The notes: a model not told the origin generated them from the letters alone. Numbered from the stretch's first letter, positions 1 to 11,931 are shown. The stretch: DNA of 11,931 bases from Verrucomicrobiota bacterium (GCA_008932965.1 WBXG01000054.1:1-11931); one strand, 5' to 3'. A program made the numbers and translations.

Positions 1-2
1 AT

Positions 3-659
3 ACACCAAGAAAAAAAGAGGCCCTCGCTTTTCTTGGAAAAGCTAATATGGAGCTACTCTCCTCACCTCCAACGGAGGCTCAAGAAAACTATACAGTGGT
101 CAAAGGGGATTCCTTGGATCGAATTGCACGCAAACAAAAATCTAACCCTGAATTAATCCAACGCCTTAATCATCTCCCCAATATTAACCTTCAAATTGGA
201 CAGGTCCTATTCGTACCTCAACTGAGCACAAGTCTCGAAATCGATCGTCCCTTAGGAATAGTGATTCTGAAAAACCATGATCAGTTTTTAAAAAGCTATT
301 CTTTACTCTCCTTTCCTCCTAAAGGAAGTCAAAAAAAACCTCCTCAAACGACAACGATTGTTGACCGAATTGCTACCTCAGGAAACAAACGAACGGCTTT
401 TGGTGATAAAAAATATCCTGATAGTGAGCGTATTATTCTTTTACGTTCTAGCGGAAATATCGTTGCAGCTCAAGCTACTCCAATAACTCCAGCTCCTACT
501 ACCATAGCACCATCCCCCAATACCAGCACCAACACTGTTGCTACTGCTGATGTGACAGCAACGACCCCTGCGATGCCTCCTGGCTTTGTTCTCTCAAGAG
601 AAGATTTAATAGAACTTTTTCCTTTTGTTACCAAGGAGACATCAGTCACGATCGATTAA
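3..659 (+). CDS. LysM domain-containing protein, probably 5'-truncated by the window edge (alternative internal ATG at 48)
   Basis: Track ORF 48..659. The same frame has no stop codon back to base 3 (TPRKKEALAFLGKAN-MELL...), so the gene may start upstream of the window. YTVVKGDSLDRIARKQKSNPELIQRLNHLPNINLQIGQVLFVP fits the LysM consensus (Y-x-V-x-x-GD-S/T-L-x-x-IA ... N-x-L ... I-x-x-GQ-x-L-x-V/I-P). A Pro/Thr/Ala-rich linker lies near the C-terminus. No catalytic motif recognised. Confidence 0.6.
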   Translation, partial: TPRKKEALAFLGKANMELLSSPPTEAQENYTVVKGDSLDRIARKQKSNPELIQRLNHLPNINLQIGQVLFVPQLSTSLEIDRPLGIVILKNHDQFLKSYSLLSFPPKGSQKKPPQTTTIVDRIATSGNKRTAFGDKKYPDSERIILLRSSGNIVAAQATPITPAPTTIAPSPNTSTNTVATADVTATTPAMPPGFVLSREDLIELFPFVTKETSVTID

Positions 660-1012
660 ATTTTTAGTAGTAATCATCCGATTGAAATCTTCCAGAATGC
701 CTCTAGAATGTGATTCCGATTGGATTTTGCTAATAGAAAAAACATCTGCTGATCACGTCCCCTTTTCAATTTAATAGACTGTAAACTTAACAATGTTGCC
801 AGTTACATGATGATGACTAATCCGAATACTTTGTACCGAAGCGTCATGTGGTGCTATGCAACGCTCATTAGCACAAGGTGGGCGAAGAATGGTGATGCCG
901 GGCTCTTATGCCAATCCCATTTCAAAACCAATGCAGTAGCCATAGAGCTTTCTACAAGCCACATTAGATTTAGTGTGAAATATTCGGATGAATTCGTTAT
1001 CTTACCTTCTTT

Positions 1013-1957
1013 ATGACTCCACTACCCCTTGATTTTGAACAACCCCTACTCGAGCTTGAAAAATGTCTTGATGATTTAATTTCTCGTACCCCTGAGGATA
1101 CCCATCGCATTTCTGTGATGCAGGAAAAACTCGAACTTATGAGGGTTGACCTCTATAAAAACCTCACTCCTTGGCAGCGTGTCCAAATTGCACGTCACCC
1201 CTCCCGCCCCTATGCCCTTGATTATTTGGAACGATGTTTTACCGATTTTGTAGAGTTGCATGGTGATCGTTGTTTTGGAGATGATAAAGCGATGCCCGCT
1301 GGTATTGCTCGAATTGGCAAATATCGGTGTGTGATCATTATGCAACAGAAGGGACGTAACGTGAAAGAAAATGTCCTTCGTAATTTTGGAAGTCCTCATC
1401 CTGAAGGCTATAGAAAGGCATTACGATTGATGCGACTTGCTGAAAAGTTTTCTCTCCCGGTGATTACCTTTATCGACACACCCGGAGCCTATCCTGGGAT
1501 TGGTGCTGAAGAGCGTCACATTGCTGAATCTATTGCCGTGAATCTTCGTGAAATGATGCTGCTAAAAGTTCCGATTATTTCTGTTATTCTAGGTGAAGGG
1601 GGCTCTGGGGGAGCCTTGGGAATAGGTGTTTCAGATAAATCCCTCATGTTAGAAAATGCCTACTACTCAGTCATCAGTCCTGAAGGATGTGCTGCCATTT
1701 TATGGAAACACCGCAAACATGCCCCAGAAGCAGCTGCAGCACTAAAACTAACAGCTCAAGACCTCACTGATCTAAAACTCATTGATGGAATCGTTCCAGA
1801 GCCGCTTGGCGGAGCTCATCATAATGCTTCTATGGCAGCAACAGCAGTGAGACATGCAATCATCGAAGCTTTAGAAGAATTGGAAAAAAAATCACTTCCT
1901 GATCTTCTCGAGGAGCGCTATGCCAAATTCCGTAAGATGGGGATCTTTTCCGAATAG
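1013..1957 (+). CDS. accA: Acetyl-CoA carboxylase carboxyltransferase subunit alpha
   Basis: 314-aa ORF. The N-terminus LDFEQPLLELEKCLDDL and the core FGSPHPEGYRKALRLMRLAEKFSLPVITFIDTPGAYPGIGAEERHIAESIA ... SVISPEGCAAILWK match the AccA family as I know it from E. coli and other bacteria. Confidence 0.95.
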   Translation: MTPLPLDFEQPLLELEKCLDDLISRTPEDTHRISVMQEKLELMRVDLYKNLTPWQRVQIARHPSRPYALDYLERCFTDFVELHGDRCFGDDKAMPAGIARIGKYRCVIIMQQKGRNVKENVLRNFGSPHPEGYRKALRLMRLAEKFSLPVITFIDTPGAYPGIGAEERHIAESIAVNLREMMLLKVPIISVILGEGGSGGALGIGVSDKSLMLENAYYSVISPEGCAAILWKHRKHAPEAAAALKLTAQDLTDLKLIDGIVPEPLGGAHHNASMAATAVRHAIIEALEELEKKSLPDLLEERYAKFRKMGIFSE

Positions 1958-2643
1958 TCTTCGGTTTTTTTTGCTGAAACAGGATAGGGATGAACCACCA
2001 AAGTAATTTCTCCTTTGACGGCTTTTGAGGAAAAATGAATCAGTACCTCCTGGGGTGTTCCATGAACATACTCTTCAAATTTTTTACTCAATTCTCTTGC
2101 AACACAGAGCCGTGCCTCGGGTAATAATGTAGTAAAATCCTTTAAGCAGGCTGGGAGACGATGGGGAGATTCAAAATAAAGAGAGGTAATACCACGCTCT
2201 AAAAGTGCTTTTATTTCTGATCGTCGCTTCGATGCAGAGTTAGGAAGAAAACCTCCAAAGTAAAAGGGAACTGGAGGCAAACCACTTCCGACAAGTGCCG
2301 TTGTCACTGCTGATGGACCAGGAAGGACAGTATACGAAATTTTTTCATTGATACAGGCTCTTACCAGCCGAAATCCTGGGTCACTAATAGAGGGGGTTCC
2401 AGCATCGGTCAGGAGCGCTACCTCTTTGCCTGCATGCAGCACATCCATGATGAAGGGAAGACGTTGCTCTTCGTTATGCTCCTGGAAGCTAACTATTTTT
2501 TTTCGTACTCCAAGATGACTGAGTAGCTGCTCTGCACGGCGTGTATCCTCAGCAAGAACAAGATCACAGGAAGCAAGGACAGCTTCTACACGATGGGAGA
2601 GATCCCCAAGATTGCCAATAGGTGTTGGTAGAATAAAAAGCAT
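1918..2643 (-). CDS. rsmI: 16S rRNA (cytidine1402-2'-O)-methyltransferase, tetrapyrrole-methylase fold
   Basis: 241-aa ORF. LFILPTPIGNLGDLSHRVEAVLASCDLVLAEDTRR ... ALLTDAGTPSISDPGFRLVRAC ... YTVLPGPSAVTTALVGSGLP ... FYFGGFLP ... ESPHRL are the characteristic RsmI blocks. Confidence 0.9.
   Translation of the reverse strand: MLFILPTPIGNLGDLSHRVEAVLASCDLVLAEDTRRAEQLLSHLGVRKKIVSFQEHNEEQRLPFIMDVLHAGKEVALLTDAGTPSISDPGFRLVRACINEKISYTVLPGPSAVTTALVGSGLPPVPFYFGGFLPNSASKRRSEIKALLERGITSLYFESPHRLPACLKDFTTLLPEARLCVARELSKKFEEYVHGTPQEVLIHFSSKAVKGEITLVVHPYPVSAKKTEDYSEKIPILRNLA
1950..1972 (+). terminator. Candidate intrinsic terminator of accA (weak 5-bp stem + T8)
   Basis: CCGAA (1950-1954), loop TAGTC, TTCGG (1960-1964), followed directly by eight T (1965-1972). 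The stem spans the accA stop codon (1955-1957). The whole structure lies inside the 3' end of the opposite-strand rsmI ORF. The stem is short, so confidence is low. Confidence 0.35.
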
Positions 2644-2714
2644 TTGAGAATCTTACAAGTTGACCTCAGTTTTTCATACTAAATCTGTAAAGAATCAGGA
2701 AAATCTTTCTGATT

Positions 2715-2893
2715 AACCCGGATGTTTCATACTGATCGTGACGAGGAGGCCGCGAAGGCTGATGGGGTAAGGCAGACGAGCATTTTGATGCAGGGCTGTA
2801 TGTGTACATACTGCCCAAATCAAAATGTGAGTCTAACGCAACATCCATCTGACTTCCCAGCTGCTACAGATGATCGGTATGCAAATTCGGGTT
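2715..2893 (+). repeat. ~180-nt TIR-bounded structured intergenic repeat, copy A
   Basis: Aligns by eye with 5761-5942, 5942-6123 and 11861-11931. Terminal arms 2715-2737 and 2872-2893 pair (18 Watson-Crick + 1 G.U). Internal hairpins at 2748-2760 and 2781-2827. Long-range helix 2763-2775 with 2849-2859. Confidence 0.7.
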
Positions 2894-3755
2894 ATGCCAG
2901 TGCTGGCAATCCAAGAGGAAGGCTCATCTTATTGCCTCCTTGAAAAGCACGACGCATTTTGGAGAGAGCTGCATTTTGAAGTTGACGAATGCGTTCACGA
3001 GTCACTCCCATTTTTACACCAACTTCCTCGAGGGTGATCGGCTCGGAGCCATCGAGACCAAATCGGCTGTTAAGAATCGCACGTTCACGCTCATCAAGTT
3101 GACCGAGAATCTCGACTAACTCTCCCTGCATATCTTTTTCATTCAGCTGTTCAAAAGGATTGAAAGCCATTTCATCACTCACGATTTCCGAAAGCTCTGT
3201 AGTTCCATCATCACTTAAAGGGGCATCCAAGGAGGTAGGACGTACCGCTGACATTTTTAACTGAGCCACCTTCGAGGGAAGCATTCCGACCTCCTCAGCA
3301 ATCTCCTCATGAGTTGCCTCGCGCCCCAAGGCTTCAGCAAGGCTATCACCTACACGACGAATCTTTGCTAGCTTATCGACAAGATGAATGGGGAGACGTA
3401 TCGTTTTGCTTTGGTTAGCTAAAGCTCGTTTAATCGATTGTCTGATCCACCATGATCCGTAGGTGCTTAACTTACCCCCTTTTGCTGGATCAAAACGTTT
3501 CACCGCTTTCATTAAACCAATATTTCCTTCTGAAATAAGATCGAGAAGAGGTAACCCGAAATTAGAGAATTCTCGTGCAATCTTCACCACGAGCCGTAGG
3601 TTGGAACGAACCATCTCTGCAAAGGCGGCTTTGTCACCCTCCTTAATTAATAGTGCAAGCTCTACCTCTCGTTGAACCGAGATAAGCGGATAACATGAAA
3701 TTTCTTGAAGATATTTTTGTAAACTTGGATCAGTATTTTCAGAGGAATAATTCAT
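2892..3755 (-). CDS. RNA polymerase sigma factor, sigma-70 family (RpoD/RpoS-like, regions 1.2-4, no region 1.1)
   Basis: 287-aa ORF. LQKYLQEISCYPLIS (region 1.2), NLRLVVKIAREFSNFGLPLLDLISEGNIGLMKAVKRFDPAKGGKLSTYGSWWIRQSIKRAL (region 2), TIRLPIHLV (region 3) and ITLEEVGVKMGVTRERIRQLQNAALSKMR (region 4.2 HTH). Closely parallels E. coli RpoS/RpoD blocks. Confidence 0.9.
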   Translation of the reverse strand: MNYSSENTDPSLQKYLQEISCYPLISVQREVELALLIKEGDKAAFAEMVRSNLRLVVKIAREFSNFGLPLLDLISEGNIGLMKAVKRFDPAKGGKLSTYGSWWIRQSIKRALANQSKTIRLPIHLVDKLAKIRRVGDSLAEALGREATHEEIAEEVGMLPSKVAQLKMSAVRPTSLDAPLSDDGTTELSEIVSDEMAFNPFEQLNEKDMQGELVEILGQLDERERAILNSRFGLDGSEPITLEEVGVKMGVTRERIRQLQNAALSKMRRAFQGGNKMSLPLGLPALA

Positions 3756-3839
3756 AAATGATGGTTTTAAGAAGTTGATGTTTCTAACGGCATTAGACAG
3801 TTAGTCGGGGCCTGACGTTCATGTTTTTTAGAAAAGATT

Positions 3840-4106
3840 TTAGACTTTTAAAGCAATATTCATGTGCAAAAGCTTGCAGGGATTAAACAAGGGGGGAGCT
3901 CCAAAGCTCTCCCAATCGGAACCTAGGGCTGTATCACCAATCAGAAGAGTTCTTTTTTGGAAAGGTGATAGCTCTTCACAATAATCTAATAAGAAAATAT
4001 CCTCAGAGGATTGCTCTCTTGAGTCATTAAGAAGATCTCTAAGAGATGCTGGAGTAGTGTAACTGAGGGAACGTTGAACGATCGGCTTCTTGGGGGGAAT
4101 GAACAT
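3840..4106 (-). CDS. Hypothetical small protein (88 aa), directly upstream of the sigma factor on the same strand
   Basis: ORF only. It fills an otherwise empty 400-nt gap between the sigma gene and divergent comM. No recognisable motif. A weak purine-rich AGAGAG precedes the ATG. Confidence 0.3.
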   Translation of the reverse strand: MFIPPKKPIVQRSLSYTTPASLRDLLNDSREQSSEDIFLLDYCEELSPFQKRTLLIGDTALGSDWESFGAPPLFNPCKLLHMNIALKV

Positions 4107-4193
4107 CTCTCTTTGGACACAAGAATCACTTGTATGTTCATTAAAAAGTTTTAGCTTTTGACTTCAAAGAAGCTTTCTGATAGTTCCAACCTG

Positions 4194-5732
4194 ATGCTTA
4201 CCAAACTCTTCTCTGCTGCTGTTATTGGAATTGATGCTACCGAAGTAGAGATTGAAATTCATACAGGAGGATCAGGAGAACCTTCCATTATTGTTGTGGG
4301 ACTTCCTGATGCGATCGTACGAGAAAGCAAAGATCGAGTGATTGCAGCAATTAGCAACAGCGGCTACAAGTGGCCTCGCACCCGTACGACCGTTAATTTA
4401 GCTCCTGCTGATATTAAAAAACAGGGCCCTAATTTTGATCTCCCTATTGCCTTAGGAATGATTGCACTTGCCAATCAAGCAACACTGCCCCGTCTCCATC
4501 ATTGTTACATTGCGGGAGAACTGGCATTGACAGGGGAGGTTCGAGCTATCAAGGGAGCTCTTCCTCTTACTCTAGAGGCACGAGCACGGGGAAAAAAAGC
4601 GGTTCTTCTTCCTATTGCCAACACCCGAGAGGCTGCTGTAGTAGAAGGAATCGAGGTCTATGGCATTCGAACCTTGCGTGAAGCTTATGAATTTCTTTCG
4701 ATGCAACAAGAACTTGCCGCTGAAGAAGAAAATCATGATGCCTTGCTCGCAGAACAGCTCACCTTTGAAGTAGATTTTAGCGAGGTGAAAGGCCAACACC
4801 AGGTCAAGCGAGCAGTCGAAGTCGCAGTAGCAGGGGGGCATAACATTCTTCTTATTGGTCCCCCTGGATCAGGAAAATCGATGCTAGCACGACGCATCCC
4901 CTCTATCATGCCTCCCCTCTCCTTAGAAGAGGCATTGGAAAGCACAAAAATACATAGTGTTTGTGGTCTTCTTGATCATGGAAAGCCTATGATTAGCCAA
5001 CGACCCTTTCGGGATCCTCATCATACTATTTCTAATGTCGGTCTGTTAGGGGGGTCTGCAGCAATTACTCCAGGAGAAATCAGTATTGCTCATCATGGTG
5101 TTCTATTCTTGGATGAGCTTCCAGAGTTTCAACGCTCCACACTCGAAGTATTACGCCAGCCTCTCGAAGATGGAAAAGTCACCATTTCACGAGCAGCAGG
5201 AACAATGACTTTTCCTGCTATGTTCATGCTTGTTGCAGCTATGAATCCCTGTCCCTGCGGCTACTATGGTGATTTGAAACGTGAATGCCGCTGCACACCT
5301 CCTCAACGTGAACGCTACCGCCAACGCATTTCTGGCCCCCTACTCGATCGTATTGATCTTCATGTAGAGGCTCCCGCTATTGAATACCAAGAGCTCGTTG
5401 GGAAAGAACTTGCTGAATCCTCCTTTCAAATTCGTGATCGCATCATAAAAGCACGAAAACGTCAGCAGGAGCGCTTTTCAGAATCTACTAAGACTCGCTG
5501 TAATGCTCGGATGAACCCTCGAGAACTTCGCAAATATTGTAACCTCACAACGGAAGGAGATGCCATTTTCAAAAAAGCGATTACCGATTTGAATTTTAGT
5601 GCACGTGCCTACGATCGTATTTTAAAAGTAGCCAGAACGATTGCTGATCTCTCAGAATCTGAAGAAATAGAAAAAGATCATCTCCTTGAAGCACTAAGCT
5701 ATCGTAGCTTGGACCGTCAGTTGTGGCAGTAA
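4194..5732 (+). CDS. comM: Mg-chelatase-like AAA+ ATPase, ComM/YifB family
   Basis: The track ORF begins at TTG 4158. The first ATG (4194) gives [23 protein letters not shown], the typical YifB/ComM N-terminus. Walker A GPPGSGKS, Walker [11 protein letters not shown], the Zn-ribbon-like [16 protein letters not shown] and the C-terminal [18 protein letters not shown] block are all present. Confidence 0.9.
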
Positions 5733-5760
5733 CGCTCTTTCTTGTAATCCCCATTTGATG

Positions 5761-5942
5761 AACCCAGATATTCCTAATCATCGTGACGAGGGAGCTTCCA
5801 AGGCTGACGAGTCAAAGCAGGCGAGCATTTTGACGCAGGGCTGTAGGAGTCCCTCTACCGCTACAATTATAATTCGAGACTAACGCAGTAACAATGAGCT
5901 TTCCACAAGCCATAATAAATTTAGTATGAATGATTCGAAATA
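5761..5942 (+). repeat. ~180-nt structured intergenic repeat, copy B (degenerate, first of a tandem pair)
   Basis: The 5' block AACCCAGATATTCCTAATCATCGTGACGAGGGAGCTTCCAAGGCTGACGAG...GCGAGCATTTTGACGCAGGGCTGT aligns to copy A with a 1-nt indel. The small hairpin is kept as AGCT-TCCAA-GGCT (5793-5805). The right arm ATGATTCGAAATA runs straight into copy C. Confidence 0.6.
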
Positions 5943-6123
5943 GCCCAGATATTTGATACTGATCATAACAAGGAGGCCGCGAAGGCTGATAGGGTAAGGC
6001 GAGCGATGAAGTCTGACGACGGCTGCATGAGTACCTACTGGCCTAGGAAGACTTCGAGCTTGGGCGCAGCATCCACCCTCGCTTCCCGCTCTACGTAGGT
6101 GATTGGTGTAAAACATCCAGGTT
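5942..6123 (+). repeat. ~180-nt structured intergenic repeat, copy C (second of the tandem pair)
   Basis: Terminal arms 5942-5965 and 6100-6123 pair (16 WC + 4 G.U). GGCC-GCGAA-GGCT hairpin at 5975-5987. Long-range helix 5992-6003 with 6078-6087. Internal hairpin GAAGTCT/AGACTTC at 6008-6014 and 6049-6055. Confidence 0.7.
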
Positions 6124-6147
6124 AATGTTACTTTTTTTTGAAACTCT

Positions 6148-7479
6148 GTGTCTAAAACATCTCTCACCCCTATTGATTCCTCTTCTGCTATCAAGGTATT
6201 ACAAAAACTCCGTAATCATGGCTACCAAGCCTATTTTGCTGGGGGCTGTGTGCGTGATATGTTGCTGGGTGTAGAGCCGCATGATTACGATATCGCCACC
6301 GATGCCTTACCCGAAGCGATTCAAAAGATTTTTTCTCGTACGATTCCTGTGGGAGCTCAATTTGGAGTCATTATTGTCTTAGAAGAGGAGACTGAAATTC
6401 AAGTAGCAACCTTTCGCCACGATGGCACTTACTCGGATGGGCGCCATCCTAACCATGTTCTTTTTACAAATGCCACAGAAGATGCTAAGCGACGTGACTT
6501 CACCATCAATGGACTTTTCTATGACCCCATTACTAAAGAGATTCTAGACTATGTAGAAGGAGGTCATGACCTCTCCTTAAAAATCATTCGTGCCATTGGT
6601 CATCCTAAGGAACGTTTTCAAGAGGACAAATTGCGCCTCTTGCGAGCTATTCGTTTTGCGACCACATTAGCATTTGAGATCGATCCTGCCACATGGGAAG
6701 CTCTTTGCGATCTTGCTCCTGAGATCCATGCTGTGAGCGAGGAGCGTATCCGTGATGAAATAGAGAAGATTTTTCTTAGCCCCCATAGGGTACGTGGATT
6801 TGACCTCCTGGATCAGAGCGGTCTTTTGAATCAGATTTTTCCAGAAATAGAGGATCTCAAAGGGTGTGAGCAACCTCCAGAATTTCACCCTGAGGGAGAT
6901 GTTTTTGTACATACACGAATCATGCTCTCCTTGCTTCCCCCAAAAGCCTCCCTTCCCCTTGTCCTCTCGGTTTTATTTCATGATATTGGGAAACCATCTA
7001 CACGCACTGTTGATGAAAAAGGAAAAATGCGTTTCTACGCCCATGATCAGGTAGGGGCTAAAATGGCAGAGAGGATCCTTCAACGACTTCGTTTTTCTAA
7101 TAAAGTTATTGATTCTGTTATTCCTGCAGTGCGCCTTCATATGAGCTTTAAAGATGTTTCAAAAATGCGCCTTTCTACACTCCGTAGGATGATGGCACGT
7201 CCTACCTTTGAAGATGAACTCGAGCTGCATCGTGTCGATTGTGCTTCCAGTCATGGAATGCTCGACAATTATGAATTGCTCCTACAGAAAAAAATAGAGT
7301 TCGCCAACATCCCTCTCGTTCCAAAACCACTGGTTACTGGTAGAGACCTAATTCTCTTGGGAATCCCACCAGGGCCAGAATTTGGAAAGATTTTACATGC
7401 TCTTAAAGATGCCCAGTTAGAAAATGCCATTACAACTCAAGAAGAGGCTATAGCTTGGGTCAAGAGACAATTAATCTAA
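6148..7479 (+). CDS. cca: CCA-adding tRNA nucleotidyltransferase (class II, with C-terminal HD domain)
   Basis: 443-aa ORF with a GTG start (no in-frame ATG before the conserved head). YFAGGCVRDMLLG, DYDIAT and RRDFTINGLFYD are the Pol-beta head motifs. RAIRFA follows, then the HD motif VLFHDIGKP with a downstream H..D. Confidence 0.9.
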   Translation: MSKTSLTPIDSSSAIKVLQKLRNHGYQAYFAGGCVRDMLLGVEPHDYDIATDALPEAIQKIFSRTIPVGAQFGVIIVLEEETEIQVATFRHDGTYSDGRHPNHVLFTNATEDAKRRDFTINGLFYDPITKEILDYVEGGHDLSLKIIRAIGHPKERFQEDKLRLLRAIRFATTLAFEIDPATWEALCDLAPEIHAVSEERIRDEIEKIFLSPHRVRGFDLLDQSGLLNQIFPEIEDLKGCEQPPEFHPEGDVFVHTRIMLSLLPPKASLPLVLSVLFHDIGKPSTRTVDEKGKMRFYAHDQVGAKMAERILQRLRFSNKVIDSVIPAVRLHMSFKDVSKMRLSTLRRMMARPTFEDELELHRVDCASSHGMLDNYELLLQKKIEFANIPLVPKPLVTGRDLILLGIPPGPEFGKILHALKDAQLENAITTQEEAIAWVKRQLI

Positions 7480-7604
7480 TACAATTTTCAATAAATAATA
7501 AATCCCAAAAAAACTCGCTAAGATATTGCATAGCAGTCCTAAGAAATCATCAGATTTAAACAATTTTGTTTGTAAATAAGGAATTATTGTGCTAGTCCCA
7601 TTGA

Positions 7605-8423
7605 ATGCAATGGGAGTTGAACTTTTCTCGATCCAAATTAAGAGGTTACACGTTTTTTAATAGGACATTTTTGAATACTGTGGCACTACTTCTTGCCATC
7701 GGTTGGTCAATAAAAACAGTTGTTGATTACTCCAAAGCGGAAAAGAACTATGAGATTCTTTTAAAAAAAGAAGAGAAGGTCAAAAAATCATTGAGCAGAT
7801 CTAGACTTGATGAACTTAAAAGAGCACACGAAGAAGATGTGCTGATAGAAAATTTTCTAAGCCAATGGTTTAAAAATTACCAAATCATTTTGCCCAGAGA
7901 GCGTCTTTTTGAATCTCAAGAACAATTCGAAGATCAGTGGCAGAGGGATATAATAGCGATCCAAGAGAAAGCAAAAAAAAGATTCGTAACACTTCCAGTT
8001 CCCTTTTACTTAGGAAATTCTCAGCCACAAGGGGCCACTCACTCACCAGAAGAGTTATTGCAACATAGCAAAGAGGAATTTCACCTTTTCTGGATAGCAG
8101 ACCATCTTTGTGAATATCCAAATTACCAAATCGAAGAGTTCACTTATAAAAAAGATTTCAAAAGATTAGAATTCATCAATGCTGAAACATTAGGATCGCT
8201 AATAATAGTAATTAGAATCAATGAATCAACATTTCAAAAAATATTAAACGGGATATTAGCAAGTCCTTATTATCTTATTATAGAAAATATAACAATAGAA
8301 AATAATAATAAAATTGGGCCACAACATTTATTAGAAGAAAAAAATGATTCTATAAAAAAAATTTTAGGTGGTGATAAACTAAAAATTTCAATGAAAATAA
8401 CTTTGTTAGATTTTAGCACATGA
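7605..8423 (+). CDS. Membrane-anchored coiled-coil protein, Amuc_1100-like (PilO/PilN-like topology)
   Basis: 272-aa ORF. N-terminal TM FLNTVALLLAIGWSIKTVV, then a Lys/Glu-rich coiled coil. The C-terminal blocks ESTFQKILNGILASPYYLIIENITIENNN and IKKILGGDKLKISMKITLLDF line up with my recollection of Akkermansia Amuc_1100 (ESVLKAMNAITGMQDYLFTVNSIRIRNE and IKPYMGKEQVFVQVSLNLVHF). The stop overlaps the next start (ATGA). The family assignment rests on memory and needs an HMM check. Confidence 0.6.
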   Translation: MQWELNFSRSKLRGYTFFNRTFLNTVALLLAIGWSIKTVVDYSKAEKNYEILLKKEEKVKKSLSRSRLDELKRAHEEDVLIENFLSQWFKNYQIILPRERLFESQEQFEDQWQRDIIAIQEKAKKRFVTLPVPFYLGNSQPQGATHSPEELLQHSKEEFHLFWIADHLCEYPNYQIEEFTYKKDFKRLEFINAETLGSLIIVIRINESTFQKILNGILASPYYLIIENITIENNNKIGPQHLLEEKNDSIKKILGGDKLKISMKITLLDFST

Positions 8424-9472
8424 AAACAAGGAGATATTATTACTTACTTATTATCATTGGATGTATCATGATTGTCTTCTTTTTAAACATCATAAGAAAA
8501 AGTATTTTTAAAGAAATCGTTTTTTTAGATAAAAAAAAGGAAGACCTCTTCATGGATAGTAGTACTCAACATAGAAAAATATATCATCTACAAGATATGG
8601 AAGATCTATTAAAAATTCAATTATCAAGTAAGGGTATAGAAGATGGACACCTTTTTTCTACAAGAATTTATTATAGTAGAAAAGGCATATTACATGATCT
8701 CCAGGAAGAGGTAACGTTACTTTATCCACCTGTTCCTAATCAATGGCTTATTGATCATGATCTGGATTACTCCAATCCCAATATCCTCAACGAAGATTCC
8801 GATAATGATGGATTTACTAATTTAGAGGAGTGGGCAGGAGAGGAACCTTATCAGGCTCCAGGAACTCAATCATCAGATCCTAATAACCCCAATTCACATC
8901 CACTCCTGTGGACTAAATTAAGAGGCAATATCAATTCTTTGCATAAAAATAACTATTATTTTGATTTCATAGGAACAGAGAAAAATAATCAAGGAGAGTA
9001 TTTCCTTATACAACCACAAACTCCAATTCCCGATAAAAACACTCAAGGAAAAAACATACTAACTAAAAAAGTAAAGCATCTTAAAATAGGTGAACGAATT
9101 GCAGATTTACCGATCGCTCTCTCTTATTATTCGAATGATGAAACCATATATAAAGATATTCATTACGATATCAGCACACTCACGCTGAGGCAAAGTGTAA
9201 CAGGGGAATCTTGGTCACTAGTTAGGAAAAGTTCTTTTCATCCTCAATCCTCACTGGTTTCTATTATTGATGCTATTACGTTTGATTATAAATTAAATTC
9301 TTCGGCTCAGAAAATCTATGCCATCAACGGTTCTTTTTTTAAGTTAGAAGATTTAGAAGCAAGTGAAAGTGAAATATATCAACTGATAAGACTCGACTCT
9401 AAGGAAGCGGTAGTCGAACGCAATGGACATCATTATTCAATCCCAATTACTAATGAATTTAACAATCTTTAA
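8420..9472 (+). CDS. Membrane-anchored hypothetical protein with a thrombospondin-type-3-like acidic Ca-binding motif (position equivalent to Amuc_1099)
   Basis: 350-aa ORF, coupled to the upstream gene by an ATGA overlap. N-terminal TM YYYLLIIIGCIMIVFFLNII. DSDNDGFTNLEEWAGEE...SSDPNNPNS (8795-8896) resembles the D-x-D-x-DG-x-x-N/D-x-x-E repeat. Located immediately upstream of the secretin. Confidence 0.7.
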   Translation: MKTRRYYYLLIIIGCIMIVFFLNIIRKSIFKEIVFLDKKKEDLFMDSSTQHRKIYHLQDMEDLLKIQLSSKGIEDGHLFSTRIYYSRKGILHDLQEEVTLLYPPVPNQWLIDHDLDYSNPNILNEDSDNDGFTNLEEWAGEEPYQAPGTQSSDPNNPNSHPLLWTKLRGNINSLHKNNYYFDFIGTEKNNQGEYFLIQPQTPIPDKNTQGKNILTKKVKHLKIGERIADLPIALSYYSNDETIYKDIHYDISTLTLRQSVTGESWSLVRKSSFHPQSSLVSIIDAITFDYKLNSSAQKIYAINGSFFKLEDLEASESEIYQLIRLDSKEAVVERNGHHYSIPITNEFNNL

Positions 9473-11931
9473 CACCAATAAATTTTCTTTTTTAATCACC
9501 CTTGCATCTATTTTTTTTGGCTTAGAGAGATTTTCTTTTAGTAACACTCAAGAAGTAGGTCAAAAAGAGGAAAAACAAATTATTATTAATGCACAAAGAA
9601 AGATGGCAGAATGTAAAATGCATTTAGGAATAAATGCACTAAGGAATAAAAAATATCTTTTAGCCTTTAACTATTATAAAGGGGCCATTGATGAATTAGA
9701 GAAGCCAAAAGCAGCATTAATGCCGCTCTATCAGGAAGCTTTATACTTACTCAATAACACAGCTGTTTTGCTTATATTAGAATATTTATCATTTTATAAA
9801 TATGATGATGCAAAACATATTGCGTCTGTTATTACTAACAGAAAGTACTTTTTTGATTATCCTCCAAAAAATTATTTAGTACCAAAAATATCACATATCA
9901 CCGCAAAAAAGACTATCACTTTTACTCAAGAGAAATCAGAAACACTCGAGACGATTTTATTAAGAGCTATCGATTTTTATCAACAGGAGAATTGGAAAAG
10001 TGCTTCTGATTCATTTCATGAAGCACTTCGTATGGATCCTAATAACGATACATCGCTTATTGGCTTATTACTTATCCAACAACAAGAGAAATGTGAATTG
10101 AAGCTTCATGCTGATGAACAGCAAAACGAGATGTTAGAAAAGGTAGATCAGTCTTGGCAATTACCTATTTCCAGTTGTGAAAATGTTAATCAAACTACCA
10201 CAAATCTACCTATTACTAACAACATTGATTTGATTAGAAAAAAAATCGATAGGATTATTATACCAAACATAGAATTTATTGACACACCTCTTCAATCATC
10301 TCTAGAGCAGATCAGGAATCAAGCTTTCCTTTTAGATAGCGATGAAAATGATTCTAATAAAAAAGGCATTAATATTGTGTTAGCATGTAATTTAAAAAAA
10401 CTTATCCCTGAACCTAAGATTACATTATCACTATTAGATACCCCCTTGCATGAAATACTTAAATATGTAACACAGCAGGCACACATGCAGTTGAGAATTG
10501 ATCCCTATTCTATAGCTATTATTCCGGAAAATGAACCTCAAGAAATACTAGTAACTAAAGATTTCAGAGTCCCATCTGATTTTATTTCTCAAATTTCAGC
10601 ATCATTTCCCTCGAATTATATTAATAGTGAAAATAAGAGCTCGAAAAAAATAGAGGCTCTTTCCATAAAAGATATTTTACTCTCCCAAGGTATTACCTTT
10701 CCTCCTGGGGCTACAGCTCACTTTCTTCCTTCAAAGAACATTCTTGTGGTTAAAAACAGTCCATCAAACATCAACTTAATAGGCTCGTTAGTAGAAAATT
10801 CTTTCCCTAGTTCATTAAAACAAGTCGAAATTGAAGCCCGATTCCTTGAAGTAAAACAAAATAATAGTAAAGAACGGGGTGTTAATTGGCTTTTAGGAGT
10901 ATTCCAACTTGGAAACAATATCAATTCAGTAAGTAGCAGAATTGAAAACAAAACGAGGGATCCTGAATCAGAGCAGCATTTTTTAAATAATAGCAATCCT
11001 AATTCAAATTCTACGAATATTGAAAAGAATTTAGGGCAATCAGGCATAAGCGCTCATGCATTAGAAACATTATTATTTGGCAACCCAGCAGGGTCAGCGC
11101 TAGGCATGCTCACTCTGGCTGGAGTGCTTTCAAACAATCAATTTCAGGTTATACTCCGGGCTATTAATCAACACAAAGGAGTAGATCTCCTCTCTGCTCC
11201 TAAAGTCACTGTCTCTAGCGGAAAAAAAGCTACGATTCGAGTTGCTCGAGAATTCCCCTACCCAGCAGATTATTCTCCACCTCAAATTCCCCAAAATCAA
11301 GGCACTAGCGTCAATCCAGCGATTCCGACAACACCCTCCTCTTTCAAAAAACGTAATGTTGGAGTTGAACTAGAGGTCAAACCAATCGTTGATGCTAATA
11401 ATAATAGTATAGAGTTAAGCCTTTCTCCAGAAATTGTGGAGTTTCAAGGATTTGTTAACTACGGGAATCCTATTTTTTCACAAGCCCCTGTTTTTTTGGG
11501 AGGAATGACAAATGTTATTACTTCAACAACACACGTTCTTCTTACACAAAACAATATTAACCAGCCTGTCTTTAGCGTGAGAGAAGTAAATACCCAGGTA
11601 GTGCTCCACGATGGTCAAACAGTTGTTTTGGGTGGGCTTATGCGTGAGGATATTAAAAAAGTAGAAGAGAAGATCCCTGTTATTAGCAGCATTCCTATTG
11701 CAGGTTCCTTGTTTCGCTCTTCCTCCGAACAAAAAATTAAACGCAATCTACTCATTTTTGTCACAGTGCATCTCTTGGATCCCTCTGGTAAAATCACCCC
11801 TCCAAAACAAAACCCCTCCCCTAGTTCAAGAGTGACTAAAAACTCCAGAGAGGCTTCGTTAACCCGCATATTTCATACTGATTCGTCGCGAGGCGCCGCG
11901 AATCCTGATGCAGACAAGGAAGGTGATGGAT
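9453..11931 (+). CDS. Secretin-family outer-membrane channel with an N-terminal TPR-like extension (Amuc_1098/PilQ/GspD-like), 3' end not in window
   Basis: Not in the ORF track. I translated frame 3 codon by codon from 9414 to 11930 and found no stop. ATG 9453 gives a signal-peptide-like MNLTIFNTNKFSFLITLASIFFGL (alternative ATG at 9423). A TPR-like segment follows (LLRAIDFYQQENWKSASDSFHEALRMDPNN). Next come N-domain-like blocks (IIIPNIEFIDTPLQSSLEQIRNQ; LLSQGITFPPGATAHFLPSKNILVVKNSPSNINLIGSLV). The secretin core is VEIEARFLEV ... FQVILRAINQHKGVDLLSAPKVTVSSGKKATIRVAREFPYP ... VGVELEVKPIV ... QVVLHDGQTVVLGGLMRED ... KIPVISSIPIAGSLFRS ... KRNLLIFVTVHLLD. Confidence 0.85.
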   Translation, partial: MNLTIFNTNKFSFLITLASIFFGLERFSFSNTQEVGQKEEKQIIINAQRKMAECKMHLGINALRNKKYLLAFNYYKGAIDELEKPKAALMPLYQEALYLLNNTAVLLILEYLSFYKYDDAKHIASVITNRKYFFDYPPKNYLVPKISHITAKKTITFTQEKSETLETILLRAIDFYQQENWKSASDSFHEALRMDPNNDTSLIGLLLIQQQEKCELKLHADEQQNEMLEKVDQSWQLPISSCENVNQTTTNLPITNNIDLIRKKIDRIIIPNIEFIDTPLQSSLEQIRNQAFLLDSDENDSNKKGINIVLACNLKKLIPEPKITLSLLDTPLHEILKYVTQQAHMQLRIDPYSIAIIPENEPQEILVTKDFRVPSDFISQISASFPSNYINSENKSSKKIEALSIKDILLSQGITFPPGATAHFLPSKNILVVKNSPSNINLIGSLVENSFPSSLKQVEIEARFLEVKQNNSKERGVNWLLGVFQLGNNINSVSSRIENKTRDPESEQHFLNNSNPNSNSTNIEKNLGQSGISAHALETLLFGNPAGSALGMLTLAGVLSNNQFQVILRAINQHKGVDLLSAPKVTVSSGKKATIRVAREFPYPADYSPPQIPQNQGTSVNPAIPTTPSSFKKRNVGVELEVKPIVDANNNSIELSLSPEIVEFQGFVNYGNPIFSQAPVFLGGMTNVITSTTHVLLTQNNINQPVFSVREVNTQVVLHDGQTVVLGGLMREDIKKVEEKIPVISSIPIAGSLFRSSSEQKIKRNLLIFVTVHLLDPSGKITPPKQNPSPSSRVTKNSREASLTRIFHTDSSRGAANPDADKEGDG
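11861..11931 (+). repeat. ~180-nt structured intergenic repeat, copy D (truncated by window end)
   Basis: AACCCGCATATTTCATACTGATTCGTCGCGAGGCGCCGCGAATCCTGATGCAGACAAGG aligns to the 5' block of copies A-C in the same orientation. It shares the left-arm core TTTCATACTGAT with copy A and the CCGCGAA...CTGATG segment. Confidence 0.6.

Follow-up and report, generated by a model that had tools for sequence, protein, structure and literature searches.

Amuc_1100 of Akkermansia muciniphila is active on the host, and the Amuc_1098–Amuc_1102 locus is needed for mucin acquisition in Akkermansia; the system has been heavily studied for these reasons. Amuc_1101 has the architecture of GspL: an actin-like domain in the cytoplasm is joined by a TM helix to a ferredoxin-like domain in the periplasm. 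In type IVa pilus systems (Pseudomonas, Myxococcus) the PilMNOPQ order runs from PilM through the bitopic PilN and PilO, both with ferredoxin-like cores, to a connector and the secretin. The classical pilMNOPQ operons that we know of contain no ATPase, pilin or peptidase genes, and the lack of such genes beside a locus of this type is therefore not unusual. In Akkermansia the proteins of the cluster are among the abundant proteins of the envelope (PMC5332112). The locus is MUL2, in which secretin-coaE-rho synteny is conserved; in Chthoniobacterales the locus is described as less conserved (PMC13174399).

Three co-directional, overlapping genes occupy positions 7605–11931 of the window (the whole 11,931-nt stretch of DNA that was analysed), as claimed in a preliminary description. 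The ORFs were found again, as were the ATGA overlap of the first two genes at 8420–8423 and the order of a TM and long-helix protein, a TM protein with an EF-hand-like loop, and a secretin. The likeness to the distal part of the Akkermansia Amuc_1102–1098 cluster proposed at that stage also holds, with the Amuc_1100, Amuc_1099 and Amuc_1098 models matched in order. The region is probably the PilO-like/connector/secretin half of the known Amuc_1102–1098 machine, split from its PilMN-like partner. Its features are:

7480..7604, + strand: AT-rich spacer of 125 nt between cca and the first gene; in related loci an Amuc_1101-like gene stands here
7605..8423, + strand: 272-aa bitopic protein (protein 1), divergent Amuc_1100-family member (HMM, family profile, AF2/Foldseek)
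8420..9472, + strand: 350-aa Amuc_1099-family protein (protein 2; NCBIfam Amuc_1099_fam 78.2 bits, alignment)
8795..8830, + strand: EF-hand-like loop DSDNDGFTNLEE, residues 126–137 of the 350-aa protein (alignment of 16 homologues)
9423..11931 and past the window end, + strand: secretin 1, Amuc_1098-like, starting at ATG 9423 or ATG 9453 (HMM)
11163..11777, + strand: Pfam Secretin (PF00263) channel domain of secretin 1 (E 1.4e-33)
11858..11931, + strand: MITE-like repeat of ~180 nt, of which the left end is present, inserted at the secretin 1 3′ end (divergence from the near-identical contig L003)

The cca gene lies directly upstream and ends at 7479, 125 nt before the first gene, and no PilM, pilin, peptidase or ATPase gene was found in the upstream part of the window; both points agree with the earlier account. 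The 20-nt overlap given there between the 350-aa gene and the secretin applies to a start at ATG 9453 and becomes 50 nt with ATG 9423, because secretin 1 has two in-frame ATGs; gene callers in public records chose 9423. The spacer is the rearrangement junction and presumably holds the promoter of the split-off unit, although a promoter and terminator consensus scan of 7300–9700 gave no promoter site within it and a total at chance level. An Rfam search of the window matched no family.

Two contigs that are 98–99 % identical to the window (L003 and L004) extend beyond it. In both, secretin 1 (828 aa at full length in L003) is followed after a 10-nt gap by secretin 2 (671 aa), coaE and rho. As secretin 2 is directly downstream, the module contains four genes and not the three first described. 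The two secretins are paralogous (35 % identical), and secretin 2 scores 575 bits with Amuc_1098_fam. Secretin 1 comprises a signal peptide, a TPR-like N-terminal region and the secretin domain (residues 571–775 counted from the 9453 start, E 1.4e-33). Its best NCBIfam model is Amuc_1098_fam (NF042912; 549.6 bits, E 1e-164, model positions 32–801 of 805), not GspD, PilQ or MshL, with runner-up models at ~126 bits; among its PDB sequence matches PilQ and GspD are about equal in strength. The NF042912 cutoff is missed (550 vs 750 bits), and since the full-length L003 secretin scores 551.7 bits, the shortfall reflects divergence rather than truncation. Over 17 kb on the upstream side and 7.5 kb on the downstream side, the near-identical longer contigs showed no pilus gene; the usual partners are not adjacent, as had been stated, and are not just downstream either.

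The end of the secretin ORF in the window is not a natural one. Its last ~74 nt (11858–11931) belong to a mobile repeat that is read through in frame, and the window and contig L001 diverge from L003 after ...CATACTGAT. The repeat is the probable reason why the contig stops here. Further copies are located in the window at 2713–2858, 5761–5887 and 5941–6098. Another copy, inside the 1101 gene of contig L088, is 95–97 % identical to the window-end copy; the other copies are 74–83 % identical among themselves. Genes of the window lineage thus carry in-frame insertions of this ~180-nt mobile repeat.

Protein 1 contains a hydrophobic stretch around residues 21–36 and, in the AF2 model (pLDDT 75), a single predicted helix over residues 12–91; its architecture is one of N-terminal TM segment, long helix and alpha/beta core. 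NCBIfam Amuc_1100_fam (NF038287) aligns with residues 199–240 only, at 35.2 bits (E 8.5e-9) against a cutoff of 180 bits. Pfam gave nothing useful for proteins 1 and 2, and a PDB sequence search with protein 1 alone gave a chance match only. However, phmmer with protein 1 finds canonical Amuc_1100 family members (E 4e-8 and 5e-6). A profile of 24 family members including protein 1, all 24 of which match NF038287, matches the Amuc_1100 crystal structures 6KNY/6LAD/6LAF with an E-value of 1e-31, the match to 6KNY/6LAD spanning profile positions 33–294. The iterated Amuc_1100 HMM was built without proteins in which 1100 and 1099 are fused. In the PDB, the first ten Foldseek matches of the model are without exception chains of Amuc_1100, with E-values from 3e-5 to 6e-4 and target-normalised TM of 0.62–0.70, at ~12–15 % identity in the structural alignment. 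Next come PilO 2RJZ, 5UVR and 3JC8 chain O, with weak E-values (2RJZ E 0.024, prob 0.99; 5UVR E 0.12, target-normalised TM 0.67). One Amuc_1100-family member also matches the GspM model (E 1.7e-5). Protein 1 is thus an Amuc_1100-family member, predicted to have the Amuc_1100/PilO fold, and is proposed to be a divergent PilO/GspM-like inner-membrane alignment protein. The earlier statement that nothing but topology ties the small proteins to type IV pilus or type II secretion platforms is therefore not supported, given this predicted fold and the GspM match of a member of the protein 1 family. By the curated NCBI cutoffs, which both protein 1 and secretin 1 miss, neither is an equivalog, and this speaks against the preferred reading of a split Amuc_1102–1098 machine.

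Among the three window proteins, only the Amuc_1099 match passes its NCBI cutoff: protein 2 scores 78.2 bits with NF042425 (E 8.4e-22; cutoff 50 bits). A TM anchor at the N-terminus is followed by a helical linker of poor prediction quality, the EF-hand-like loop and a beta-rich region, the N-terminal helix being predicted in an AF2 model of pLDDT 82. The loop is of canonical EF-hand-like form (D126-S-D-N-D-G-F-T-N-L-E-E137), and its DxDxDGFTNLEE pattern is conserved in 16 homologues, with D126, G131 and F132 invariant and D130, N134, L135 and E136 nearly so. Judged from these residues, the loop probably binds Ca; one protein 2 orthologue also gives a weak match to a bacterial TSP3-repeat. The family has 1416 cluster representatives at E≤1e-3. 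A PDB profile search with it gave no match, and Foldseek with the protein 2 model gave nothing significant in the PDB, the best matches being eIF5A/EF-P-like small barrels at E>0.05. Fusion proteins of 1100 and 1099 (552–587 aa) occur in several independent assemblies, with the 1099 TM anchor dropped, as would fit two interacting periplasmic proteins. Judged by its gene position and these fusions, protein 2 is the probable link between the inner-membrane ring and the secretin. A fold likeness to PilP or GspC is undetectable in protein 2, a second point against the preferred reading.

When set beside the described systems, the locus is closest to Akkermansia Amuc_1098–Amuc_1102 (MUL2 and secretin; NF042912, NF042425, NF038287, NF045709, NF042424), with the same model order and, for the first protein, a predicted fold like that seen in the Amuc_1100 crystal structures. 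The coaE and rho genes also lie downstream in the window lineage, as drawn for Akkermansiaceae (PMC13174399). Unlike the Akkermansia cluster, it has no Amuc_1102-like gene and no adjacent Amuc_1101, carries a second, paralogous secretin, and is very divergent in sequence, with two of the three HMM scores under cutoff. The type IVa pilus PilM-PilN-PilO-PilP-PilQ set follows the same logic and order, from an actin-like PilM to a secretin, and in its classical arrangement likewise stands apart from ATPase and pilin genes. In Verrucomicrobiota, however, PilM and PilN are fused, and here the fusion is unlinked from the operon; protein 2 differs from PilP, a beta-sandwich lipoprotein that attaches to the N0 domain of the secretin, in that it has the EF-hand-like loop and no PilP fold (Foldseek) or lipoprotein signal was detected in it; and there are two secretins, that of the window with a TPR-like N-terminal region. 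The GspM match of one Amuc_1100-family member and the near-equal GspD and PilQ matches of the secretin recall the GspL-GspM-GspC-GspD set of type II secretion, but gspE, gspF and pseudopilin genes are not linked to the locus. The gene order also differs from that of gsp operons, and searches of protein 2 revealed neither an HR nor a PDZ domain (Pfam, Foldseek).

Gene order was surveyed in 80 species-representative genomes, with 64 loci having enough upstream sequence. An Amuc_1101-like gene stands directly upstream of the 1100 homologue in 62 of these, and in 55 of the 62 an Amuc_1102-like pilin-like gene lies further upstream (seven sampled genes score 90–141 bits against a cutoff of 55). Two tandem secretins are present in 31 of 53 loci. 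The common order in related Verrucomicrobiota is Amuc_1102-like gene, Amuc_1101, 1100, 1099, secretin(s), coaE, rho; the window follows it from 1100 onwards, with cca in the place of Amuc_1101. By its domain matches, Amuc_1101 is a PilM–PilN fusion: PilM models (TIGR01175, PF11104) match residues 52–352 of 578, an LNLLPPS motif precedes the TM helix, and in one relative (P0048) the PilM_2 and PilN Pfam domains are both above cutoff. The idea of a stand-alone module is not borne out, as this fusion and the pilin-like gene so regularly precede the same genes and a relative with the same gap keeps its PilMN-like gene on another contig of the same assembly.

In that relative (L012; GCA_019747735.1), contig 9 carries 1100-1099-secretin-secretin-coaE-rho without 1101, and contig 29 an epimerase gene followed by a 310-aa 1101 remnant. 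Epimerase and 1101 followed by unrelated genes are also seen in L088, L089 and L091. In the window lineage, which belongs to an AT-rich Chthoniobacterales clade, and in two relatives, the operon is interrupted between the 1101 and 1100 genes. By rho identities the window lineage is sister to the unsplit L008 with L012 outside that pair, so that 1101 has been separated at least twice independently. L088 and L089 are probably relatives of the window organism, as their shared repeat subfamily and comparable divergence from L008 suggest, and the window organism itself would then keep a PilMN-like gene. The rho gene of L088 was dropped as an argument against the window lineage; it is a paralogue, 47–49 % identical to the rho of L003, L007, L008 and L012, and argues neither way on kinship.

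Could the 1100-like and 1099-like proteins and the two secretins form a self-contained channel or scaffold that works without a pilin-like or PilM-type partner? Repeated separation of 1101 would fit such autonomy. So would the absence of any 1102-like ORF, even at E≤1, in ~27 kb (L092 and L003) or at the AT-clade loci, and the intact state of four genes under purifying selection. In P0037, P0039 and P0041, moreover, the PilM part of 1101 is cut to ~90 residues, with most of the ATP-binding domain lost. However, P0032 keeps a recognisable PilM region, and the PilN-like half of 1101 survives in all the cases seen, which leaves the PilO-like protein a partner. Since ATPase and pilin genes are missing from classical pilMNOPQ operons too, little can be concluded from their absence in the neighbourhood, and with ~38 kb of the source genome viewed, partner genes may sit elsewhere. 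An autonomous module is accordingly unlikely.

The base composition raises two further readings. GC content falls from ~45 % to ~31 % exactly at the module start (~position 7500), with the cluster genes at 32–35 % and the flanking housekeeping genes at 41–46 %, as would be expected if foreign DNA had been acquired behind cca. However, the sister lineages L008 and L007 show the same dip at the ancestral position, and the secretin-coaE-rho linkage is common to the AT clade, GC-rich Chthoniobacterales and Verrucomicrobiales, and extends to Akkermansiaceae (PMC13174399). Those homologues that are named or located come from Chthoniobacterales or other Verrucomicrobiota, and third-position GC differs far less than total GC, which points to relaxed amino-acid constraint under AT pressure. 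Horizontal transfer was therefore rejected as an explanation for the lower GC; an acquired island is highly improbable. The low GC, together with an identity to L008 of 42–62 % for the cluster proteins against 85 % for rho, could instead mark the leftovers of a machine being lost under AT-biased drift. Lost or truncated partner genes and the mobile repeat in the 3′ end of secretin 1 and within 1101 of L088 would agree with such decay. Yet each lineage examined, deeply divergent as these are, has all four ORFs at full length, no invariant column of either the 1100 or the 1099 family is lost, the repeat insertions preserve the reading frame, and dN/dS between the window and L003 is below 1 (0.24–0.5, from only 6–17 substitutions per gene). 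A decaying remnant without a working system is thus quite improbable.

The preferred reading, a known machine split in two, would run as follows. The ancestral unit would have been epimerase, 1102, 1101, 1100, 1099, secretin, secretin 2, coaE and rho. The pilin-like 1102 may have been lost from the locus in the AT-rich clade, after which a rearrangement would have cut the unit between 1101 and 1100. The 1100-1099-secretin-secretin 2 block would have kept its link to coaE-rho and moved behind cca, with the PilMN-like gene staying beside the epimerase gene elsewhere in the genome. That the window looks partner-less is mainly due to this cut just upstream. The machine would be of type IV pilus/type II secretion-like kind, with the window encoding its periplasm-to-outer-membrane half. 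The helix and the alpha/beta core of protein 1 may be the parts by which it pairs with the periplasmic, PilN-like half of Amuc_1101. Protein 2, whose gene position is that of PilP/GspC in classical systems, would be anchored in the inner membrane and span the periplasm by means of its EF-hand-like loop and beta-rich region, and secretins 1 and 2 would form the outer-membrane channel. These contacts and the periplasmic location are inferred, and the ATPase, platform and pilins would be encoded elsewhere in the genome. The function may be substrate capture or uptake, as proposed for Akkermansia, though mucin acquisition need not hold for the freshwater organism of the window. As the 1101 remnants of some relatives lack most of the PilM ATP-binding domain and 1102 was not found at any AT-clade locus, the machine may work unlike that of Akkermansia. 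It is conceivable, if rather unlikely, that a pared-down PilN-like/PilO-like/Amuc_1099 scaffold with two secretins serves as a pilus-independent, motor-independent conduit or envelope tether; if so, it would represent a naturally occurring, minimal secretin system.

The three genes, which evolve fast, are copies of the final three of a pilus-like envelope machine known from Akkermansia and other Verrucomicrobiota; the original observation is real and largely ordinary, and the locus is neither a self-sufficient new system nor a new kind of system. For annotation, both sub-cutoff proteins (protein 1 and secretin 1) can be named with reasonable confidence. The window represents a natural dissection of the Amuc_1098–1102 system, in which the 1100-1099-secretin(s) block behaves as a unit that can be separated yet keeps its link to coaE-rho, the 1101/1100 junction has been broken more than once, and the pilin-like gene is dispensable at the locus across the whole AT clade. 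Together with the 1100-1099 fusions, these patterns support a role of Amuc_1100 as a PilO-like inner-membrane alignment protein contacting Amuc_1099. They do not fit Amuc_1100 as a pilus subunit. The patterns of split, loss and fusion also suggest testable interaction pairs.

The module begins 125 nt beyond cca, which ends at 7479 and encodes a 443 aa product with PolyA_pol head, RNA-binding and HD domains. The other upstream genes in the window encode a LysM protein, AccA, a tetrapyrrole-type methylase, a sigma-70 factor and a YifB-type AAA protein, and GC content falls from ~45 % to ~31 % at the module start.

Genes of the module in the window and just past its end
7605–8423, + strand, protein 1 gene, ORF of 272 aa
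8420–9472, + strand, protein 2 gene, ORF of 350 aa
From ATG 9453 or in-frame ATG 9423 (the start taken in public gene calls), open at the window end, + strand, secretin 1 gene (protein 3), ORF
L003 (near-identical contig) 13501–15516, just past the window end, secretin 2, a paralogue without the N-terminal TPR-like region in the window lineage

The 272 and 350 aa ORFs share the ATGA at 8420–8423. Protein 1 has an N-terminal hydrophobic segment followed by a single long predicted helix, protein 2 is anchored at its N terminus and carries DSDNDGFTNLEE, a canonical EF-hand-type loop conserved across the Amuc_1099 family, and protein 3 contains a secretin domain. ORFs, helix prediction, conserved loop and secretin domain thus confirm the three-gene arrangement and the protein features put forward in the preliminary description.

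Contigs L003, L004 and L092–L094 are 98–99 % identical to the window. In these, secretin 1 has a full size of 828 aa, and secretin 2 (671 aa, 35 % identical to secretin 1) starts 10 nt after it, followed by coaE, rho, diacylglycerol kinase, peroxiredoxin and aconitase. Successive gaps along the 1100-like and 1099-like genes, secretin 1, secretin 2, coaE and rho (L003 9186–17649; window from 7605 onward) are −4, −20 or −50, 10, 16 and −4 nt. The module consists of four genes, tightly packed up to rho. With spacing this tight, the pilus-like genes may share a transcript with coaE and rho, both of them essential, which could account for phylum-wide retention of this linkage. The 17 kb upstream hold mutS, thiG, rmuC and genes for a PIG-L protein, a binding protein and an RND pump besides the window's own genes. 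No pilin, PilM, peptidase or ATPase genes were found there or in the downstream stretch through aconitase in the near-identical contigs; where the missing partners might have lain just downstream, secretin 2, coaE and rho are located instead.

All three proteins match the NCBIfam models for Amuc_1100, Amuc_1099 and Amuc_1098, and the Akkermansia families named in the preliminary description are correct. Protein 1 scores 35 bits (E 8.5e-9) against a cutoff of 180 for Amuc_1100_fam, with only a short C-terminal stretch matched. A phmmer search from protein 1 reaches canonical Amuc_1100 family members in related loci. A 24-sequence alignment including protein 1, in which 24/24 members match the NCBIfam model, matches the Amuc_1100 crystal structures 6KNY, 6LAD and 6LAF over almost the full length (E 1e-31). 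The ten best Foldseek PDB matches of the AlphaFold2 model of protein 1 (pLDDT 75) are Amuc_1100 chains; ranked after these are Pseudomonas PilO (2RJZ, 5UVR) and the PilO chain of a Myxococcus pilus-machine model. Structural likeness of Amuc_1100 to PilO/PilN is described in a preprint (bioRxiv 10.64898/2025.12.30.696933). Secretin 1 scores 550 bits (E 1e-164) against a cutoff of 750 for Amuc_1098_fam, aligned over model positions 32–801 of 805, and secretin 2 scores 575 bits without the N-terminal ~146 model positions.

Protein 2 passes the Amuc_1099_fam cutoff (78 bits; cutoff 50). Its structure model is confident (pLDDT 82) and beta-rich from residue ~165, and it has no significant match among PDB folds. 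The family is large, with 1416 cluster representatives at E≤1e-3. Several independent assemblies encode 1100–1099 fusion proteins of 552–587 aa, in which the 1099 part begins past its own membrane anchor, i.e. the anchor has been dropped. Such fusions fit two periplasmic partners.

1100–1099 fusions
L011 (related locus) 3724–5418
L020 (related locus) 8819–10273
Related proteins P0012, P0015, P0017 and P0020–P0023

Scanning a single genome for each species gave 332 loci with an Amuc_1099 relative, of which the best 80 were used; nearly all of these 80 are from Chthoniobacterales, Terrimicrobiaceae or Verrucomicrobiales MAGs. Genes were assigned with HMMs derived from these loci in iterative rounds, with spot checks against NCBIfam. 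The canonical order is an NAD-dependent sugar epimerase/dehydratase, Amuc_1102-like (~205 aa), Amuc_1101-like (~580 aa), 1100, 1099, secretin, often a second secretin, coaE and rho. Among the best 80 of 332 loci, 1101 adjoins 1100 in 62 of the 64 with enough upstream sequence, 1102 adjoins 1101 in 55/62, and two secretins are present in 31/53. The secretin duplication is an old one, found widely in Chthoniobacterales; none of the sampled Verrucomicrobiales-type loci has a second secretin.

Amuc_1101 consists of a PilM domain (residues ~52–352), a membrane helix preceded by an LNLLPPS motif, and a PilN-like region, an architecture shared with GspL; in one relative the PilM and PilN Pfam domains are both above threshold. 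The whole 1102–1098 cluster corresponds, in Verrucomicrobiota, to pilMNOPQ or gspL-M-C-D preceded by a pilin-like gene. As for classical pilMNOPQ operons, genes for motor, platform and pilin would not be expected beside the verrucomicrobial cluster.

The closest relatives (L007/L010, L008, L009, L011, L012 and L020) are AT-rich, with 42–52 % identity in the 1099 protein. No 1102-like gene was found at the locus in any of them, and their 1101 is short and divergent (97–138 bits versus 529 for a typical 1101). Within the clade, just three members have no upstream 1101: the window lineage, L009 and L012, where the upstream neighbours are cca, ribD on the other strand and an ECF sigma factor, respectively. 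In rho identity the unsplit L008 is the sister of the window lineage, with L012 outside this pair; the break between 1101 and 1100 therefore occurred at least twice.

A search with 1101 proteins of the clade recovered P0039 (310 aa), encoded on another contig of the L012 assembly (GCA_019747735.1) directly behind an epimerase gene and followed by unrelated genes. The same arrangement is found in L091, L088 and L089; the 664 aa 1101 homologue of the latter two (P0032) is 47 % identical to that of L008. Short 1101 derivatives of 250–311 aa (P0037, P0038, P0039 and P0041; L090 9900–10832, L091 1381–2304) were also seen. These, P0039 included, retain only ~90 PilM residues, the LLPPS motif, the membrane helix and the PilN-like domain, and the actin-like ATP-binding domain has been deleted from 1101 in one sub-lineage.

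A MITE-like repeat of ~180 nt, with terminal inverted repeats of ~25 nt (TTAACCCGGATATTTCATACTGATCG...) and a single-strand DNA fold at z = −5, occurs in at least four copies in the 12 kb window.

Copies of the MITE-like repeat
Window 2713–2858
Window 5761–5887
Window 5941–6098
Window 11858–11931
L001 (related contig) 5036–5175
L088 8215–8444
L088 9022–9134, reverse
L088 9735–9889
L008 19508–19653

The repeat probably explains why the contig ends at the window edge. In the window and L001 one copy lies in frame in the 3′ end of secretin 1, where L003 has only a 31 nt remnant; the Amuc_1101-like ORF of L088/L089 has two or three in-frame insertions and is still open (664 aa). The repeat resembles Rickettsia palindromic elements in this. 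A hypothetical ORF of 106–125 aa in public gene calls (window ~2440–2800; L003 4024–4380) is probably spurious, since it runs into the copy at 2713–2858 and has no Pfam match. A copy in L088 is 95–97 % identical to the window-end copy, versus 74–83 % among the other copies, which is suggestive of L088 belonging to, or lying close to, the lineage of the window. L088 also encodes (159–1559, minus strand) a 466 aa Rho-like protein with Rho_RNA_bind and ATP-synt_ab domains, only 47–49 % identical to rho of L003, L007, L008 and L012. This protein is a divergent Rho paralogue, the second in the AT-rich clade.

In all members of this clade the cluster genes lie 8–13 GC points under flanking housekeeping genes (window 7500–11931 versus 1–7500; L003, L007, L008). 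A foreign origin was rejected, as the dip is clade-wide and the downstream coaE–rho linkage is intact. The dip is absent in one GC-rich relative, and is read as relaxed amino-acid constraint under AT pressure. The pilus-like genes evolve much faster than their neighbours (42–62 % identity versus 85 % for rho). Despite identities of 42–62 %, all four ORFs are uninterrupted in every lineage examined. Residues invariant across the 1100 and 1099 families are retained, and dN/dS between the window and L003 is 0.24, 0.35 and 0.5, on few substitutions.

In the best-supported reading of the machine, protein 1 would be a PilO/GspM-like partner to the PilN-like half of a 1101 protein encoded elsewhere. 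Protein 2 would act as a connector, anchored in the inner membrane and probably carrying a calcium site; its position is comparable to that of PilP/GspC, but no fold similarity was detected. Secretins 1 and 2 would form the outer-membrane channel. A scaffold with two secretins that works independently of pilus and motor is improbable. The preliminary description, in which the module lacks its usual partners, is only partly right: none of them adjoins the four genes, but these probably make up the distal part, about half, of a widespread system that is already known, cut from its PilMN-like gene by rearrangement. Cluster proteins are abundant envelope proteins in Akkermansia (PMC5332112). The MUL2 locus is tied to mucin acquisition, and particle attachment has been proposed in a paper on aquatic Akkermansiaceae (PMC13174399), in which secretin–coaE–rho synteny and weaker conservation in Chthoniobacterales are also described. 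In a clade in which no pilin-like gene was found at the locus, the module is a reduced version of this known system.
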